The translations under genes were made by a program, and so were the position numbers. Under the pieces are notes generated by a model, which worked only from the letters and a program-made list of their open reading frames with translations, was not told the origin of the DNA and did no database searches. From Candidatus Auribacterota bacterium (GTDB lineage: Bacteria; Auribacterota; UBA6266), in the NCBI GenBank assembly GCA_023136205.1, contig JAGLRQ010000029.1, forward strand, positions 1 to 24,201: a DNA stretch of 24,201 bases, given 5' to 3'. The first letter of the stretch is position 1; each line of letters starts with the position of its first letter. Positions 2,671 to 10,350 of this stretch are shown here, piece after piece.

Positions 2671-3940
2671 TGTAAACAACTTTTCCGCTTACGACCGTAA
2701 CAACCGCCTTCCCCTTCATTTTCCATCCGACGAAAGGAGAATTAGCGCTCCTGGAAACAAAATCTTCCTCTTTAACAGTCCACTCTTTGTCAATGTCCAA
2801 TACGGTAACATCACCATCAGCCCCCTCGGATAAATGCCCCTTATTTTTAAAATTGAGTATCCCGGCCGGGTTGAGGCTAAGCCTTTCCGCGAACTGCATA
2901 AGAGTTAATATCTTTTTATGATAAAGAGATGTCATAGACAGGCCTACTGAAGTCTCAAGCCCTATTATCCCGAAAGGAGCAAAATTAAACTCTACATCCT
3001 TTTCATGTTTTACATGAGGGGCATGGTCCGAAGCAATAGCATCTATGGTTCCGTCTTTTAGGCCTTTAAGTATGGCCTTTCTGTCTTTTTCTGTTCTCAG
3101 CGGCGGCTTCATTTTAAAGTTGGTATTAAAGGTTTTCAGGCTTTCGTCTGTCAATGTAAAGTAATGGGGCGCGGTTTCTGCCGTAACGTTTATGGATTTA
3201 GCTTTTGCCTCCCTGATAAGGTCAACTGAACCAGCCGTACTGATATGAGCAAGATGCACATGAGCCCCCGTCATCGCGCTCAAAATGATATCTCTCGCCA
3301 CAATAACTTCCTCCGACGCCGCGGGTATGCCTTTAAGCCCCAGGCGCACTGACTCACTGCCAAAATTCATTACTCCATCTCCTGAAAGTGAAACATCCTC
3401 ACAATGATCAATAACGGGGATTTTGAACATTGAAGCATATTCAAGCGCCCTCCGCATAAGATTGCTGTTCATAACACAGTTTCCGTCATCTGAAATAGCC
3501 ACAGCTCCGGCTTTTTTTAAAGATCCTATTTCCGTCAGAGTTTCCCCTTTTTTCCCCATCGTGATACAGGCCGCGGGAAAAACATTAGCGCTTCCGGTAT
3601 CTCTCGCCTGAGCATAAATAAGGCCTACAATGCCTTCGTTATCTACAGGAGGTTCAGTATTACCCATGCAAACAACCGAAGAAAATCCGCCTTTAACAGC
3701 CGCTCTGGTTCCTGTTTCAATGGTTTCCTGATCTTCCCTTCCGGGCTCTCTCAGATGAACGTGCATATCTATAAGGCCGGGAAAAACAACGTGCCCTTTT
3801 ACGTTGAGCACTTTACATCCGGTTCCCTTAATAGATTTCCCCAGCTTCGTGACTACCCTATTTTCGATTAAAATATCAAGGTTATCATCAATCACGCCTT
3901 TAGGATCAATTACCCTTCCGCCTTTAATTAACAATTTCAC
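2657..3940 (-). CDS. pyrC: Dihydroorotase
   Basis: 427 aa with the [10 protein letters not shown] metal-binding motif, a later DHAPH motif, and an [11 protein letters not shown]-terminus. GTG start forms a GTGA overlap with the pyrB stop. Confidence 0.95.
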
Positions 3941-4884
3941 AGCATACTCCTGATTTTACTTCCGCCATTCACGAGAAAAAATACAGCCATTCTTACAGCG
4001 AGGCCGTTAGTAACCTGATCAAGAATAACAGAAAACGGGCCGTCAGCAACGGAAGCCGACATTTCTATCCCTCTGTTAATAGGCCCCGGGTGCATTACAA
4101 TAGCATCAGGCCTGATCTTTTTAATCCTTCTATCATCAAGGCCAAAGAGGTTCGAATACTCTCTGAGTGACGGGAAAAGATTTTTGTTCTGACGCTCAAG
4201 TTGAATTCTGAGCATATTTATTACATCAACCTCACCTATTACATCATCAAAGTTATGAACTATTTTCACACCCATATCTTCAAATTCCCTGGGCACGAGA
4301 GTAGGAGGCCCTACCAGTATAATCTCAGCGCCAAGTTTTGAGAGCCCCCAAATGTTCGAGCGGGCCACCCTGCTGTGAAGAACATCTCCAACGATAGCGA
4401 CTTTAAGCCCCTCTATTTTTCCTTTTTTCTGCCGCATGGTAAAGATATCAAGGAGCCCCTGCGTTGGATGTTCGTGCAGGCCGTCGCCGGCATTTACAAT
4501 AGAAGCGTCAAGCCTCTTTGCCAGCATGTGAGGCGCTCCGGAAACAGAATGTCTAATTACAAGTATGTCTATTTTATAGGCGGCAAGATTTTTAACTGTG
4601 TCAATTAATGTTTCACCCTTTGTTAAACTGCTTCCCAATGCCGCGACATTAACTATGTCAGCGCTCATCCGTTTTTCGGCAATCTCAAACGACGTTCTCG
4701 TCCTGGTACTCGGTTCAAAAAAGAGATTAACTACAGTTTTACCTCTGAGTACAGGAACCTTTTTGATTGAGCGGGTGGATATCTCTCTAAATGACTCCGC
4801 AGTATCAAGAATATGAATAATTTCACCAGCCGAGAGTTCTTCAAGCCCGAGTAAATTCTTTCCATTCCAAACTTTTTTAGCCAT
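3937..4884 (-). CDS. pyrB: Aspartate carbamoyltransferase catalytic subunit
   Basis: 315 aa with [13 protein letters not shown] (carbamoyl-phosphate site), HPTQ and HPGP motifs. Confidence 0.97.
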
Positions 4885-4888
4885 TTAA

Positions 4889-5425
4889 TCACTTCTCCAC
4901 TATAACTTCATCTTCTTTCCCATCAACTTCCGTAATACGCAGTTTTATCTTTTCCCTCCTGGATGTAGGAATATTTTTACCGACATAATCCGCTTTTATC
5001 GGCAATTCCCTATGTCCTCTGTCAATCAAAACAGCCAGCTCAACCTTTTTCGGCCTTCCAAAGTCCATAAGAGCATTGAGCGCCGCCCTCACTGTCCTGC
5101 CCGAATAAAGGACATCATCAGCAATAATAACAACCTTATCTGTAAGGTCTAAATTTATTTCGGTGCTGTGAACAACCGGCTGTTCATCTATTTTATCTAA
5201 ATCATCCCTGTAAAAAGTTATATCAAGAACACCAAAAGGTATTTCTATTTTTTCAAGCTTTCCAAGTTTATCTATCAACCTCTTTGCCAGGTAAACACCT
5301 CTTGTCCTTATACCAACTACGACTACATCACGAAGAGTCTTATTCTTCTCAATTATTTCATGAGCCATCCTCGTAACCGCACGGGAAATATCACCTTCAT
5401 CCATTATTTTAACAGCGCTAACCAT
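4889..5425 (-). CDS. pyrR: Bifunctional pyrimidine operon attenuation regulator / uracil phosphoribosyltransferase
   Basis: 178 aa with the PRTase PRPP loop [14 protein letters not shown]. It is the first gene of the pyr operon. SD AGGAGAAGGG lies upstream of the ATG. Confidence 0.93.
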
Positions 5426-5447
5426 GCACCCTTCTCCTGTTTTTCAC

Positions 5448-5482
5448 AAAAAAACCCCTCCTTTGCCTTGTAGAAGGAGAGG
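5448..5482 (-). terminator. Intrinsic terminator of the pyrR leader attenuator
   Basis: Minus-strand RNA reads CCUCUCCUU-(loop CUACAAGGC)-AAGGAGGGG followed by UUUUUUU. That gives a 9-bp stem with one G-U pair. It lies between the predicted promoter and the pyrR SD. Confidence 0.7.
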
Positions 5483-5506
5483 TATATATGTATTTTATAA
5501 ACACAT

Positions 5507-5533
5507 CTTGTCCTTTTTCGGCTTCTCAGAACC
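5507..5533 (-). promoter_or_regulatory. Candidate PyrR-binding stem-loop (anti-antiterminator) in the pyrR leader
   Basis: Minus-strand RNA reads UUGGUU-CUGAGA-AGCCGA, followed by the purine-rich AAAAAGGAC. The hexaloop CUGAGA fits the CNGNGA loop I recall for B. subtilis PyrR binding loops (UCCAGAGAGGCU-like). It matches 8 of 12 positions of that motif. Confidence 0.5.
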
Positions 5534-5560
5534 AATTTAAAAGGTTAAATCCTAAACAGA

Positions 5561-5589
5561 ACTCTACCTCATAAAAGCCCTGCCGTCAA
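5561..5589 (-). promoter_or_regulatory. Sigma70-type promoter of the pyr operon
   Basis: Minus strand has TTGACG (5589-5584), a 17-nt spacer, then TAGAGT (5566-5561). It sits about 135 nt upstream of the pyrR ATG, leaving room for the attenuator. Confidence 0.5.
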
Positions 5590-5626
5590 GATTAATTTAT
5601 GAGGACACTTCTATTTTGTTACTTTA

Positions 5627-7531
5627 TCATCTGACTTTTATGACAACCATTGTCATATCATCATGCTGCGGCATTTTCCCGATAAACTTTTTTATTTCTC
5701 TTTCAATAACCTTTAAAATTTCCAGGCTGCTCTTTTCGGCTCCACACATTTTTAGTGTATTTACCAATCGCTCTTGCCCGAACTCTTCCTTCCTGGAATT
5801 TTTAGCTTCAGTTATCCCATCGCTATAAAAAACAATTACATCGCCGGATGAAATCCGGAATTCTTTTTGGCAAAAATCTACCTTTTCCATTAAACCGAGC
5901 GGCATACCGCCGTCCACTTTCAAGAATATCACTTCTTGAGTATCTTCTTTTTTCAAAAGAACCGGCGGATGGCCTCCGTCGCTAAGTGTTATTTTTCTTT
6001 CTTTTTCGTCTATTACGGCACAAGATACGGTTACAAAAAGGCCTGTTTTTGATTCAAGGCAAAGAGAAGTATTTAAGTTAGATAAGGTCGCAGAAGGGCT
6101 TATGGTATCTTTAGTTTGAAATTTCAACTCACTTATTATCTTAGCCATAAAAAGCGCGGCCGGCACGCCCTTTCCGGAAACATCGCCGACAACAATCCCC
6201 ATTCTCTCCTGTCCATAATCAGAAAACTGATATAAATCACCTCCCACATGACGGGCGGGGCGCATTATAGCCGCTATAGAAAGAGTTCTTCTCCTAGGCA
6301 ATTCACATGGAAGAAAACTATTCTGTATTTCTCTGGCCAAATCCAGCTCTTTCTCTACCAACTGGCGCTTGTGCAGCTCCAGGATATATTTTAAAAAGAT
6401 AAGCGACAAATATAATAAAATACAAACGAAAAGAGGATAAAATAAATCTATCCATATGCCGCAAAAGATAAAGAGAATAAAGCCGGCAATTATGTAAGCG
6501 ATGAGCACAACTGACACTAAATAGACTGACAAAGAAGTTCTGGTTTTTAATGTCAGGAAACTAATAGTCATCAGAACGGCAAACAGGATAATCAAATTTA
6601 TAAATTTATTTACTCTGAATAGGAAGGTATTTTCAAGGATACTATTAAATATGTTGGCGTGCACGCCCACATTGGGATATCTGGACTCAAGAGGCGTCAG
6701 GCTCAAATCATGTAAGCCCGCCGCGGCTGTTAAGCCAATAAAGCAAACTTTACCCTTAAGGCTGTCTAAATTTATTAACGGCTTCTTGCCCTTTTCTATC
6801 TGCGAATATGACCTGAATATATCAACATAAGAATAATGCGTGAAGGCCTCTTTCCAGGAACCGGCATAATTAATCATCATCTGGTATTTATTATCAACTG
6901 GTATTTTAACCCGGGGAGTTATCTGGATAAACTTGCCCTTTTTGATTAAAACCTGATCCTGAGAGACACCAAGATAATCGCAAACAGCCAGAAAAGTCAG
7001 GTGGGGAGAATATTTATTTTCGTATTCAAAATACAGAGGTACTCTTCTGTTCTTGCCGTCTAAGTCCTGAATAATATTAATATGACCGCTTCCGTAACCT
7101 GCCTGTTCAAGTTCCCTTAAGGGTTTGGCTTCAAGCCTTAAAGGCTTCTTGTTTTCATCCAATCTAAATACATAAGGATAATAAACACAGCCGGCTTTTT
7201 CAGTTGAATCAATTAAAGCCCCGTCATTCTCGCTTCTATCTGAAAATAAGACATCAAAGACAATCAACCTCACCTGGTATTCAGCCAAAATGTCTATCAG
7301 AGCGGCGTGGAAATCTCTATCAAAGGGCCAACGGCCTATTTCCCTGATAGAATCTTCACTAATTTCTATAATGACGATATCCTCATTTTGTTTTTGCGCG
7401 GGCCGGGCCTTGAATCTTAAATCCAGGGTTTCAAGTTCAAATACATCAAAAATTCTAAAATAAGAAGTTAATCCTACAGCAGCAAATACGAATAATAGAA
7501 ATAAGATTTTAAGAACTTTTGTCTTCTGCAT
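5627..7531 (-). CDS. CHASE2 sensor domain - 3 TM - PP2C/SpoIIE-family serine phosphatase (RsbU-like)
   Basis: 634 aa. It has an N-terminal TM helix and a CHASE2-like periplasmic region (IVIIEISEDSIREIGRWPFDRDFHAALIDIL...LIVFDVLF). Three hydrophobic helices follow at about aa 310-385. The PP2C motifs are GGDLYQF, VVGDVSGKGVPAALFMA, DGITEA and DDMTMVVIKV. Confidence 0.85.
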   Translation of the reverse strand: MQKTKVLKILFLLFVFAAVGLTSYFRIFDVFELETLDLRFKARPAQKQNEDIVIIEISEDSIREIGRWPFDRDFHAALIDILAEYQVRLIVFDVLFSDRSENDGALIDSTEKAGCVYYPYVFRLDENKKPLRLEAKPLRELEQAGYGSGHINIIQDLDGKNRRVPLYFEYENKYSPHLTFLAVCDYLGVSQDQVLIKKGKFIQITPRVKIPVDNKYQMMINYAGSWKEAFTHYSYVDIFRSYSQIEKGKKPLINLDSLKGKVCFIGLTAAAGLHDLSLTPLESRYPNVGVHANIFNSILENTFLFRVNKFINLIILFAVLMTISFLTLKTRTSLSVYLVSVVLIAYIIAGFILFIFCGIWIDLFYPLFVCILLYLSLIFLKYILELHKRQLVEKELDLAREIQNSFLPCELPRRRTLSIAAIMRPARHVGGDLYQFSDYGQERMGIVVGDVSGKGVPAALFMAKIISELKFQTKDTISPSATLSNLNTSLCLESKTGLFVTVSCAVIDEKERKITLSDGGHPPVLLKKEDTQEVIFLKVDGGMPLGLMEKVDFCQKEFRISSGDVIVFYSDGITEAKNSRKEEFGQERLVNTLKMCGAEKSSLEILKVIEREIKKFIGKMPQHDDMTMVVIKVR

Positions 7532-7553
7532 TTTTATAAAACCTTATTATTTC

Positions 7554-8591
7554 TTAGAAGGAATAATGCAAACCAACTGAAAAAATGGTCTCGGTATATT
7601 CATCACGAGGTTCATTGGAATCATTTTCCCTATAGGTAAGGTTCAGGCTAATCGATGTGGAAGGCGTAAAATCGTAAAGGAAAGCGGTATTTATAGTAAA
7701 CATCTCATCTTCCTGGACTCGGCTATTATCAAAAGTAGTTCTGTGTCCGTAATCCTTAAAGGCCTGGGCAAAGCTTAGCAGTCCAAAAAATTTCTCACTA
7801 AAGATATGGATGGCGGTTAAACTAATTTTATGGGACGAGTAATCATAATAATCGTAATATGAGTCATTCGAATCGTTGATATAGTATTGTCCTCTTAATT
7901 TCAATAAGGTCTTCTCCCATAAATAATAGCCGGCTTCCAATTCGGCTATATGCCTGTGATCCGTTCTCTCGGAGCCTGACTCTGTGCCATTCGCGTATCT
8001 TGCCTTCCTGTCATCATATTTCTTATGCAAATAACCATAGCCCAGGCGCCCATAGAATTTAGACGTTAAATAGTTTTTAAAACCCAGAGAAACTCTGTTG
8101 GCTCTATGGCTGCCGGGGCCATACTTAGGATAATCAATTAGGCCAAAATTGTAATTAAATTCTAAAATGTTTTTCCCCACCAATCTGTTTTGAAGATTAA
8201 AATTAAAATTATTATTAATCATACTGGCATCGGTAATTTCAGGATAAGCTATGAAATTAAAATTGTAATCCAATTTTAATTTCATATCCTGCCAGAGCGC
8301 GAATCCTAAGTAAAAAGGCTTTTCTATGCCAAATTTAAATCTGGTTTCAAAAAAAACATCACCTTCCTTTGAAGAATTGAGGTTGACATTGTTATCGTAG
8401 CCCATATTTTGGCTAATGGAAGAATTTAATTTCGGTTTTTCGGTTGGATATTCCCTGGCATAAGCCTGAATTACAGATTCCACAGTCTGCATATTGTATC
8501 TTTCCGCGGGCTCCAATTTCTCATCCGCGGAACAAGCAGTAAGGCCAAAGAATAAAACCCCTAATATTGCGGGTAAAAATTTGCTTCTCAT
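7554..8591 (-). CDS. Putative outer-membrane beta-barrel lipoprotein
   Basis: 345 aa. A signal peptide ends in the lipobox LTAC. The body is rich in Y/N/G/D with alternating amphipathic strands (LKLDYNFNF, VSLGFKNY, LEAGYYL, ISLNLTY). The C-terminus ...VGLHYSF ends in Phe, which is typical of BAM substrates. I did not recognise a family. Confidence 0.6.
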   Translation of the reverse strand: MRSKFLPAILGVLFFGLTACSADEKLEPAERYNMQTVESVIQAYAREYPTEKPKLNSSISQNMGYDNNVNLNSSKEGDVFFETRFKFGIEKPFYLGFALWQDMKLKLDYNFNFIAYPEITDASMINNNFNFNLQNRLVGKNILEFNYNFGLIDYPKYGPGSHRANRVSLGFKNYLTSKFYGRLGYGYLHKKYDDRKARYANGTESGSERTDHRHIAELEAGYYLWEKTLLKLRGQYYINDSNDSYYDYYDYSSHKISLTAIHIFSEKFFGLLSFAQAFKDYGHRTTFDNSRVQEDEMFTINTAFLYDFTPSTSISLNLTYRENDSNEPRDEYTETIFSVGLHYSF

Positions 8592-8634
8592 TTTTCCCCT
8601 GCCATTTTTAATAAATCGCCATGAAGAATTAAGG

Positions 8635-9492
8635 TCATCTTTTCAAGTAGTGTTCTTCTATGTCTTCTTCTCTTTCTTCTTCGTTCCCTTCGTCTCTTCC
8701 TTCTTCTTTTATCCTATCTTCAATGTCTTCCATTTCTCTAATCTCAAAAAAGTCTTCTCTTTCTCCAATCTTTGATTCAATCCAACCCTGCTCTCGCGCG
8801 GCTCTATCCATCTGCTGAACCAGGGGCTGCTTTTTTTGAGTCTCAGTTAAAAATTTTCTCAAACCCTTCCTCCATAAGTCCCATGACCGCCGCTCTTTAT
8901 CTGTCACCTCTAAAGTTTTTTGTGGTTTCTGAAATTTTTTCACAATAGTTTTAAAGTTTTGATTAACGATCAACTCTCCGCTCATTGCCTGGCCATTTTT
9001 ATCAAGACCCTTTACGAAAATAAAGTTTTGGTGGCAGGCAGCCGTCGTGTGGGAATCAAAGTCCACTCCCCAGCCTGTTCCCCGGGCGCCGCAGATAGCC
9101 GTGGGCGTACGAATTTCAAAACTTGATTTGTCTCCCAATGATTTAATTAGAGAATAGACTTTGCCCTTATCTAAATTTACATTAACTATTGGGCGTAAGT
9201 CTTTGAGAACTATACTGGTATTGCTGAAAACCTTTATTATTTGTTCTGTTTCTCTTGAAAAAGAGAGTTCCGCGTATGAGCCCCATCCTCCGGTCTTTAT
9301 TCTGTCATCTCTAAATAACTTCATGCCCGCTTTGGCATTCATCCATTCGGCTTCGTCTGCCTGCAGAATTGTAACCCGCCCTTTGAGCCGCAAAATCAGA
9401 GCGTAATCTTCTTCCGCGTAAACAAAATCGCAAATAAAAAAAGAAAGGACAGCTGCACTCAAGATAAAAAACCTAAAAGTTTTACTCCTCAT
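8635..9492 (-). CDS. Secreted FecR-domain protein with an acidic C-terminal tail
   Basis: 285 aa with a signal peptide (MRSKTFRFFILSAAVLSFFICDFVYAEE). FecR-like segments are LKGRVTILQ...W..AKAGMKLFRDDRIKTGGWGSYAELSF and IRTPTAICGARGTGWGV. The last ~35 aa are Glu/Asp-rich (EDIEDRIKEEGRDEGNEEEREEDIEE). Confidence 0.75.
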   Translation of the reverse strand: MRSKTFRFFILSAAVLSFFICDFVYAEEDYALILRLKGRVTILQADEAEWMNAKAGMKLFRDDRIKTGGWGSYAELSFSRETEQIIKVFSNTSIVLKDLRPIVNVNLDKGKVYSLIKSLGDKSSFEIRTPTAICGARGTGWGVDFDSHTTAACHQNFIFVKGLDKNGQAMSGELIVNQNFKTIVKKFQKPQKTLEVTDKERRSWDLWRKGLRKFLTETQKKQPLVQQMDRAAREQGWIESKIGEREDFFEIREMEDIEDRIKEEGRDEGNEEEREEDIEEHYLKR

Positions 9493-9523
9493 AATTCTTC
9501 ATCTCCCTTTCTAATGGGATTAT

Positions 9524-9859
9524 TCATTTGAAACTCTCAACAGCCTGCCGGGCCTCTGGATAAAATTCAAACATCTGCTCCAGTTTTGTTATTTCAAAAA
9601 CACTCTTGACCATTTCCTGGAGATTAGCTAACTTAAGCTGGCCGCCGGAACTCTTTAGTTTTTGCAGTATTTCGACTAAAGTAGCTAACCCGGAACTATC
9701 CATATAGGTTACTTTCTCTAAATCCAGAATCAGTTTTCTGGCTTGCTCATCAATCAGTTTAATAAAAGATTTCCTTAATTCAGGAGAATTACTAAAGGTA
9801 ATCTCTCCTTTTAACCTGCATATAAAAACATCGCCATCCTTATCTATGTTTATTTTCAT
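9524..9859 (-). CDS. STAS-domain anti-sigma-factor antagonist (RsbV/SpoIIAA-like)
   Basis: 111 aa with the YMDSSGLATLV motif, identical in its core to the phospho-serine site DSSGL of SpoIIAA/RsbV. Its ATG forms an ATGA overlap with the upstream kinase stop. Confidence 0.9.
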   Translation of the reverse strand: MKINIDKDGDVFICRLKGEITFSNSPELRKSFIKLIDEQARKLILDLEKVTYMDSSGLATLVEILQKLKSSGGQLKLANLQEMVKSVFEITKLEQMFEFYPEARQAVESFK

Positions 9860-10269
9860 TCTTGAATCACCTCTCCTAATTTTTTAATCATTGTAATCAT
9901 GCTGCCTTTCTGGTTAAAACAAACTTTATCCATAAAGTTTTTGATTAAAAAAACTCCCCGTCCGGTAAGCTTATTAATACCTTCTTCAAAGGTAGGGTCC
10001 GGGGTATGTTCATAGTCAAAACCATTCCCTTCGTCTTCAATCGAAATTTTAAATTGTTCCTTATCTATTTCAAAATCTACTTTAATTTTTGCTTCAGGCC
10101 TGAGATTACTGCCATGTTTAACAGCATTAATTAAAGCCTCTTCCACACAAAGCCGAATTTTAAATTTTTTCTCCTCATCAACATTCAGCTCTTTTAAAAT
10201 ACGCAGGATCTTTGAGCTGACAAAGTTAATATTTTTATACTCGCTGTTAATCCGCAATTTTTCTTCCAT
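9856..10269 (-). CDS. Anti-sigma regulatory factor / serine-protein kinase (RsbW/SpoIIAB-like HATPase)
   Basis: N-box EEALINAVKHG, G1 box DEGNGFD and G2-like GRGVFLI. ATG at 10269 lies downstream of AAGGAGG. The ORF track start at 10281 is a GTG too close to the SD. Confidence 0.88.
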   Translation of the reverse strand: MEEKLRINSEYKNINFVSSKILRILKELNVDEEKKFKIRLCVEEALINAVKHGSNLRPEAKIKVDFEIDKEQFKISIEDEGNGFDYEHTPDPTFEEGINKLTGRGVFLIKNFMDKVCFNQKGSMITMIKKLGEVIQE

Positions 10270-10321
10270 CGGTAATCTCACCCCTCCTTGTCACCTCTCG
10301 TATAAGCTAAACTTTTTCATA

Positions 10322-10350
10322 TTTATAGACGATTCGATAGTGTTTATCAA
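10322..10350 (-). promoter_or_regulatory. Sigma70-type promoter of the partner-switching operon
   Basis: Minus strand has TTGATA (10350-10345), a 17-nt spacer, then TATAAA (10327-10322). It lies directly after the PMI stop codon and about 50 nt upstream of the kinase start. Confidence 0.5.

Follow-up and report, generated by a model that had tools for sequence, protein, structure and literature searches.

We analysed a 24,201-nucleotide (nt) stretch of DNA from a Candidatus Auribacterota bacterium (contig JAGLRQ010000029.1 of assembly GCA_023136205.1, hereafter called the window), in which the minus strand from 5627 to 10281 carries five packed, co-directional genes. Read 5' to 3', they encode a kinase, a STAS protein, a FecR-domain protein, an outer-membrane barrel, and a CHASE2-PP2C phosphatase. 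On balance, we lean towards reading this operon as the regulatory half of an Omnitrophota system whose ancestral form would have been kinase-STAS-MlaE-MlaF-MlaD-(FecR-barrel)-CHASE2/PP2C, i.e., an envelope-sensing phospho-switch for the Mla lipid transporter that is here unlinked from its target. Through phosphorylation, the switch probably controls lipid transport at the outer membrane, since mlaE, mlaF, and mlaD lie between the STAS and FecR-domain genes in most relatives of the operon. Because the window holds the regulatory half alone, our claims for the window itself are limited. Each part comes from a known family, and the literature searched contains no description of a partner switch that is fed by CHASE2, FecR, and barrel components and lies within an mla operon. 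A preliminary description of this DNA, made from its letters alone, had already noted an envelope-sensing partner-switching operon; what it observed was confirmed, and its interpretation was partly supported.

The features of the operon are as follows:

9856..10281, minus strand: RsbW/SpoIIAB-type serine kinase (Pfam HATPase_c_2, 4.7e-27)
9524..9859, minus strand: single-domain STAS protein (Pfam STAS, 2.9e-27)
8635..9492, minus strand: secreted protein with a FecR domain and a strongly charged C-terminal tail (PF04773, 2.6e-6)
7554..8591, minus strand: 14-stranded outer-membrane beta-barrel of the BBP2_2 family, C-terminus HYSF (BBP2_2, 1.3e-5)
5627..7531, minus strand: CHASE2-PP2C membrane phosphatase of 634 amino acids (aa) (CHASE2, 4.8e-50; SpoIIE, 8.4e-49)
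6566..7480, minus strand: CHASE2 domain of the phosphatase, residues 18-322 (Pfam, 4.8e-50)
5630..6211, minus strand: PP2C domain of the phosphatase, residues 441-634 (SpoIIE, 8.4e-49)
10322..10350, minus strand: sigma-70-like promoter TTGATA-N17-TATAAA, read directly and conserved in the related loci L179, L182, and L168
5448..5482, minus strand: terminator-like hairpin followed by seven T, between the phosphatase gene and pyrR, which closes the operon

Linkage to mlaEFD in related loci

The CHASE2-PP2C protein has more than 1,300 homologues, of which the 120 best share its two-domain architecture, and those that are named come from Omnitrophica/Omnitrophota genome bins; the organism was placed in the Omnitrophota. 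A metagenome scan using an alignment of the CHASE2 domain only, which avoids swamping by the generic PP2C motif, contributed 80 further loci. Both a 71%-identical orthologue (L001) and the complete genome CP070655.1 (L002) have the order kinase-STAS-MlaE-MlaF-MlaD-FecR-barrel-CHASE2/PP2C, and a co-directional kinase-STAS-MlaE-MlaF-MlaD run is found in 29 of the 36 related loci with at least 6.5 kilobases (kb) of upstream DNA. Thirteen of these 29 Mla-containing operons have both the FecR-domain and barrel genes, five have FecR only by the models used, and 11 have neither. The linkage of CHASE2-PP2C to FecR and barrel genes, which had been described earlier for this one locus, recurs, with FecR in 18 of the 29 (with or without the barrel). 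Immediately upstream of the CHASE2-PP2C gene stands mlaD in 29 and the barrel gene in 28 of the 72 loci with at least 0.9 kb of upstream DNA.

The same linkage is seen from the side of the transporter. Kinase-STAS lies directly upstream of mlaE in all seven MlaE lineages inspected, which were sampled from the homologues of the L001 MlaE, two of the seven being chosen lower in the ranking. The STAS gene of the relatives is the sole STAS gene of the co-directional operon; because kinase-STAS adjoins mlaE, it sits at the place of mlaB. By sequence comparison, the Mla identity of the relatives' genes is firm: against solved structures, their MlaF proteins match MlaF at 5e-75 to 9e-66 and their MlaE matches MlaE at 6e-36, while their MlaD, which also has PDB matches to MlaD, contains an MCE domain. 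Neither mlaC nor mlaA was found in the operons of relatives, and no sigma factor gene was seen in those related loci whose genes carried Pfam calls.

The preliminary description had presented the operon as a switch with no output gene. This holds for the 24 kb window, where no sigma factor gene occurs among the scanned open reading frames (ORFs) and no other candidate target accompanies the module, but it is a peculiarity of the window's lineage, given the position of mlaEFD in most relatives.

It might be argued that the adjacency has no meaning, i.e., that five independent envelope and signaling genes happen to be packed together in a compact genome. The whole window is indeed dense on one strand, and promoter-like matches occur in it at chance frequency. 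Nevertheless, we consider this explanation highly improbable: the gene set recurs among relatives merely 40-50% identical in protein sequence, and the components stay together in rearranged loci (L148, L167, and, with a fused kinase-STAS protein, L112 and L166). Moreover, the promoter is kept across an insertion breakpoint, two genes overlap by 4 nt, and a terminator follows the last gene. The cluster is a real operon.

Kinase, STAS protein, and phosphatase

The three components of a partner switch, which the preliminary description had called complete, are all present with conserved catalytic motifs, and each motif that it quoted was found in the translations. The kinase is 141 aa long from the GTG at 10281 (137 aa from an alternative ATG at 10269; the GTG is replaced by ATG in L168 and L182), and the N-box, G1, and G2 motifs of this GHKL-type protein are conserved across 38 relatives. 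Its matches in the PDB are SpoIIAB (2.4e-8) and RsbW (1.1e-6). The single-domain STAS protein has a predicted phospho-serine, S55, in a DSSG motif (codon 9695-9697), and this residue is conserved to at least 95% across 39 relatives. In the phosphatase, the metal-binding aspartates D432, D450, D571, and D624/625 are invariant in 24 sequences, and the PP2C fold matches RssB, SpoIIE, Rv1364c, and SiaA.

The phosphatase was predicted by AlphaFold2 with a mean confidence (pLDDT) of 86.5, with helices at residues 2-24, 309-329, 332-357, and 364-406, in agreement with hydropathy. One transmembrane helix thus precedes the periplasmic alpha/beta CHASE2 domain and three follow it before the PP2C domain; that this domain is periplasmic and flanked by transmembrane segments had been proposed earlier from the sequence. 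The protein is built like a CHASE2 sensor, in which transmembrane helices enclose the extracytoplasmic domain and the output domain is cytoplasmic.

The set resembles RsbU-RsbV-RsbW and SpoIIE-SpoIIAA-SpoIIAB in its PP2C phosphatase, its STAS protein with a DSxG serine, its GHKL kinase, and the conserved catalytic motifs. It differs from them in having no sigma factor, in its periplasmic CHASE2 input, in a likely ABC (ATP-binding cassette) transporter as output, and in placing the kinase gene first. This last feature had been singled out as an oddity; the order is real but is conserved in the family, and the oddity is a minor one. In Bordetella btrW-btrV, the kinase gene likewise precedes the STAS gene. 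Partner switches with outputs other than sigma factors include SiaABCD of P. aeruginosa, SypA/SypE of Vibrio, and the HenR module of Anabaena (PMC8457831, PMC10120452, PMC13555669), and the system proposed here would be like these in that an enzyme or envelope process is under the direct control of a phospho-switch protein.

Proposed mechanism and comparison with MlaB

In E. coli, Thr52 of MlaB is at the centre of the MlaF-MlaB interface, the phosphomimetic substitution T52E weakens MlaF binding, and T52A is non-functional; phospho-regulation of MlaB was raised in the same work as an intriguing but unsupported possibility, no kinase being known (PMC7367683). When residues 43-90 of the STAS protein are aligned without gaps to residues 40-87 of E. 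coli MlaB, S55 stands opposite Thr52. The system is thus like MlaFEDB of E. coli, A. baumannii, and P. aeruginosa in that the relatives' STAS gene adjoins mlaE, mlaF, and mlaD and in the correspondence of S55 to Thr52. It is unlike MlaFEDB in that a kinase and a phosphatase are encoded in the operon (none is known for MlaB), the STAS protein is of the anti-sigma-antagonist type, mlaC and mlaA are not linked, and the window itself is without mlaEFD.

From the genes present and their linkage, the identities of their domains, and the conserved residues at the catalytic and phosphorylation sites, we infer the following steps of binding and phosphorylation, together with the direction of regulation and the nature of the signal. 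The RsbW-like kinase would phosphorylate the STAS protein at S55 and so render it inactive. An envelope signal at the periplasmic CHASE2 domain, probably relayed to it by the FecR-domain protein and the 14-stranded barrel, would lead the membrane PP2C to remove the phosphate from S55. Unphosphorylated STAS protein would then act like MlaB, binding the MlaF ATPase and turning the MlaFED lipid transporter on; alternatively, the STAS protein might titrate the kinase off MlaF, as in a classic partner switch. As for the window's lineage, mlaEFD would have been removed from the operon, and the switch would act on the product of some other locus, for which a relocated Mla transporter is the simplest candidate.

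A further and more tentative suggestion, for which the odds seem to us somewhat unfavorable, is that the full system represents a natural, self-contained form of the phospho-regulation long hypothesized for MlaB. The barrel, FecR, and CHASE2 components would sense disturbance of the outer membrane, the PP2C phosphatase and the kinase would set the state of the MlaB-like STAS protein, and MlaFED would be switched post-translationally. If true, lipid homeostasis of the outer membrane would be governed by a closed feedback loop, and CHASE2/FecR input would gain its first functional context. The literature searched contained no case of a lipid ABC transporter ATPase as the target of a partner switch, nor of MlaB or MlaE linked with RsbW-, SpoIIE-, or PP2C-type proteins or with CHASE2. 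With a kinase, a phosphatase, and a STAS protein in the position of MlaB all adjoining mlaEFD, how the Mla transporter is regulated after translation becomes testable, and the three proteins are small enough for expression and in vitro tests. What CHASE2 senses becomes testable as well, and the recurring trio of barrel, FecR, and CHASE2, tied to a lipid system, suggests envelope state rather than a soluble ligand.

Several observations weigh against an Mla output. The functional coupling rests wholly on gene order, and the window has no mla genes, either in the operon or elsewhere in its 24 kb. By sequence, the STAS protein is much nearer to anti-sigma antagonists than to MlaB: its best PDB matches are TM1442 (1.8e-15), RsbV, and SpoIIAA, and the matches to MlaB of P. 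aeruginosa (6.7e-4) and E. coli (0.07) are weaker. Finally, no MlaE of the window's lineage appeared among the 120 best homologues of the L001 MlaE. None of these 120 was assigned to the lineage's contigs of 538, 94, and 59 kb, and none fell at the expected identity of about 80%; the nearest (83%, 71%, and 69% identity) belong to other lineages with complete operons, and the evidence is negative and weak. Since no such MlaE was found among them, the target in the window's lineage may not be Mla. The FecR-domain protein and the barrel raise a separate difficulty: their roles as input accessories are not secure, because 11 of the 29 Mla operons are without both and because one related locus, L185, keeps both with Mla but has no CHASE2-PP2C gene at the end of the operon.

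Another explanation is that the operon is a stand-alone classical partner switch, in which the kinase would be an anti-sigma factor or an inhibitor of some other regulator, the target would be encoded elsewhere, and adjacency to mla would reflect co-regulation or a shared envelope function. The PDB matches and NCBIfam assignments of the STAS protein and the kinase, nearest to TM1442/RsbV/SpoIIAA and SpoIIAB/RsbW, respectively, agree with this explanation, as does the retention of the five genes under purifying selection in a lineage without linked mla. However, neither the window nor the Pfam-annotated loci showed a gene for a sigma or transcription factor, mlaEFD directly follows the STAS gene in 29 of 36 loci and in seven of seven MlaE lineages, and outputs other than sigma factors are well known for partner switches (PMC8457831, PMC13555669), such that we regard a stand-alone classical switch as unlikely.

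The Mla-less lineage of the window

A STAS protein identical to that of the window is encoded on 17 contigs, the longest of 538 kb, and in two NCBI genome bins, and all eight places shown for the identical protein have the five-gene operon without mla. A sister lineage with 88-95% identity has the same five-gene arrangement. The Mla-less arrangement is stable and no assembly accident. Between the window and the sister lineage, the ratio of nonsynonymous to synonymous substitution rates (dN/dS) is 0.19-0.33 for each of the five genes; all five are under purifying selection, and on these ratios the module is maintained. In an 84%-identical relative (L085), the break lies at a different place, giving the order serS-FecR-barrel-CHASE2/PP2C. 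Parsimony favors a loss or relocation of mlaEFD in the window's clade, and the lineage would be a natural uncoupled variant that could reveal other targets of the switch.

The FecR-domain protein and the barrel

All five domain assignments of the preliminary description were upheld by Pfam profile search, those of FecR and BBP2_2 at the family level. The FecR-domain protein scores 28.2 bits against a cut-off of 24, and PF04773 is matched by 30 of 30 FecR-like relatives, at best with 7.8e-14. The barrel protein (345 aa) scores 24.7 bits for BBP2_2 against a cut-off of 23.7, with a weak LamB match besides, and 16 of 25 barrel relatives match BBP2_2. Both calls are marginal and hold because the relatives match at the family level. 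The N-terminus of the FecR-domain protein resembles a signal peptide, the protein is without a membrane-anchored anti-sigma region, and the FecR family profile retrieved no match by sequence among solved structures.

The AlphaFold2 model of the barrel (pLDDT 73.8) has 14 strands over residues 55-344, preceded by about 50 unstructured residues, and thus agrees with the earlier assignment of this protein to the outer membrane. A Foldseek search with the model retrieved outer-membrane porins, with the best TM-score (0.67) for the 14-stranded OmpG, followed by CymA and FadL. The barrel had also been called a lipoprotein. While its outer-membrane character stands, with a C-terminal phenylalanine in 28 of 29 relatives, the lipobox occurs in one of 29 distinct family members, in the window's lineage only, and we rejected lipoprotein as a trait of the family.

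The statement, in the preliminary description, that FecR-domain and CHASE2 genes are often neighbors was supported, and the adjacency is already published, namely for an operon of Burkholderia (response regulator/LysM-FecR/CHASE2-kinase/DUF4136; PMC5192318) and for a CHASE2 cyclase cluster of Campylobacterota (PMC9239204). We confirmed the Burkholderia adjacency in annotated records and found FecR-domain genes adjoining proteobacterial CHASE2-PP2C genes too; the adjacency recurs across phyla and output types. In the published pairs, as here, a secreted FecR-domain gene lies directly upstream of a CHASE2 sensor gene. In contrast to them, with their histidine kinase or adenylate cyclase outputs, the operon here has the barrel family and the STAS/kinase pair, neither of which is present there.

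An outer-membrane barrel acting upstream of CHASE2 also has an experimental precedent in NsrA of Sinorhizobium meliloti, a barrel genetically required upstream of the CHASE2 sensors CyaK and CyaD1/D2 (PMC7529298, PMC13001267). The two systems share an outer-membrane barrel and inner-membrane CHASE2, a functional analogy drawn from the literature. They differ in that the output of NsrA is cyclic AMP and that a FecR-domain partner is not mentioned for NsrA in the portions available. A search of plasmid records with the barrel by tblastn returned no match, and the CHASE2 query did not bring up pSymB either. The combination with an mla operon is absent from the literature searched; a barrel upstream of CHASE2 is already known.

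The resemblance to FecA-FecR-FecI that had been suggested turned out to be loose. The FecR domain and the idea of a signal passed from outer to inner membrane are shared, and nothing further: the barrel is small and is no TonB-dependent transducer with a plug and an N-terminal signaling domain, the FecR-domain protein has a signal peptide and no membrane-anchored anti-sigma region, and there is no sigma factor of the extracytoplasmic function (ECF) type.

The FecR-domain protein and the barrel could instead be the periplasmic and outer-membrane end of an Mla-like lipid route, replacing MlaC and MlaA, with CHASE2 sensing something else. Their genes lie between mlaD and the phosphatase gene in operons that are without mlaC and mlaA, and L185 retains them with mlaEFD although its operon ends without CHASE2-PP2C; due to this arrangement of L185, a role in a transport route stays a live rival. 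The Slam-type surface-lipoprotein translocator barrel family (PF04575) is, moreover, matched by two of 25 barrel relatives at 2.6e-10, a hint that the barrel might serve to export its FecR-domain neighbor or to display it. On the other hand, both genes stay with CHASE2-PP2C where Mla is not linked (the window's lineage, L085, and the distant L164 and L166), 11 of the 29 operons with Mla have neither, and FecR genes adjoin CHASE2 kinase, cyclase, and PP2C genes in Proteobacteria and Campylobacterota with no involvement of Mla (PMC9239204). We judge a transport role to be improbable and prefer to see the two proteins as input accessories of the phosphatase.

Boundaries and surroundings of the operon

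The packing of the genes agrees with what had been described before: in the ORF list of the window, spacers of 31 nt (STAS/FecR-domain), 43 nt (FecR-domain/barrel), and 22 nt (barrel/CHASE2-PP2C) separate the genes, and the kinase and STAS genes overlap by the 4 nt ATGA. The promoter reported previously was also located, at 10350-10322. The window has 14 promoter-like matches compared to 13.9 expected from shuffled sequence, and we rejected significance of the promoter on statistics alone; the call is supported because the site is conserved in relatives, and not by match frequency. The -35 box reads TTGACA in L168 and L182, and L168 keeps the promoter across a breakpoint, the DNA just upstream being an unrelated 5-kb insertion. 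In this locus of the sister lineage (3337-7904), the insertion of about 5 kb lies between a manA-like gene and the kinase promoter and contains an S8 peptidase, a Y1 transposase fragment, LemA, and a TPM-domain protein.

At the other end, the 201-nt spacer before pyrR (5426-5626, minus strand) has a folding z of -3.7, and its hairpin ends 22 nt before the pyrR start. Besides terminating the operon, the hairpin may double as a PyrR-type attenuator; an Rfam search of the window gave zero matches, the spacer hairpin included. In L182 (9422-10277), a genome bin of the window's lineage, a gene with a TPS (two-partner secretion) domain replaces pyrR after the phosphatase gene.

Variation among related loci

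In L185 (6238-11290), the MlaE of which was found on 20 contigs, the order is kinase-STAS-MlaEFD-FecR-barrel followed by spoVG, and the phosphatase must be encoded elsewhere or missing. Four loci whose operon is without the FecR-domain and barrel genes have a separate cluster 3-8 kb downstream of it (L003, 14290-17935; L086, 14687-20885; L008, 3417-7266; L126, downstream of 11116), comprising an outer-membrane protein of about 445 aa, a SurA_N-like protein, two proteins of about 196 aa, and a FecR/TSP3 protein of 800-900 aa. This cluster may be a substitute input module. Tandem pairs of FecR-domain genes occur in the operons of L114, L116, L122, L131, L143, L145, L151, and L186, and both proteins of the pair in L186 match PF24045 (DUF7354/MtxA_N) too.

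In L002 (9994-10359), L088, L090, L092, L093, and L096, the CHASE2-PP2C gene is directly followed by a second STAS gene, which is encoded on the other strand; the window is without it. In a more distant subfamily, a fused kinase-STAS protein is encoded downstream of CHASE2-PP2C (L112, 2454-3200; L166, 12008-12754), and upstream in L164 and L166 are giant FecR-domain proteins of 1,800-2,100 aa with a barrel of about 500 aa. Recurring downstream neighbors in relatives, absent from the window, are an ACT-domain protein, an M23 peptidase, an aldo-keto reductase, and a tyrosine-phosphatase-like protein (L001, 9968-12628; L003, 9943-13749; L086, 12078-14613).

The other scanned ORFs of the window (at least 100 aa) have housekeeping functions and lie on the same strand as the operon. 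Across 1-24201, the minus strand holds all long ORFs that do not overlap, among them all those matched by Pfam, and GC skew is negative in each 1-kb block (-0.05 to -0.31).

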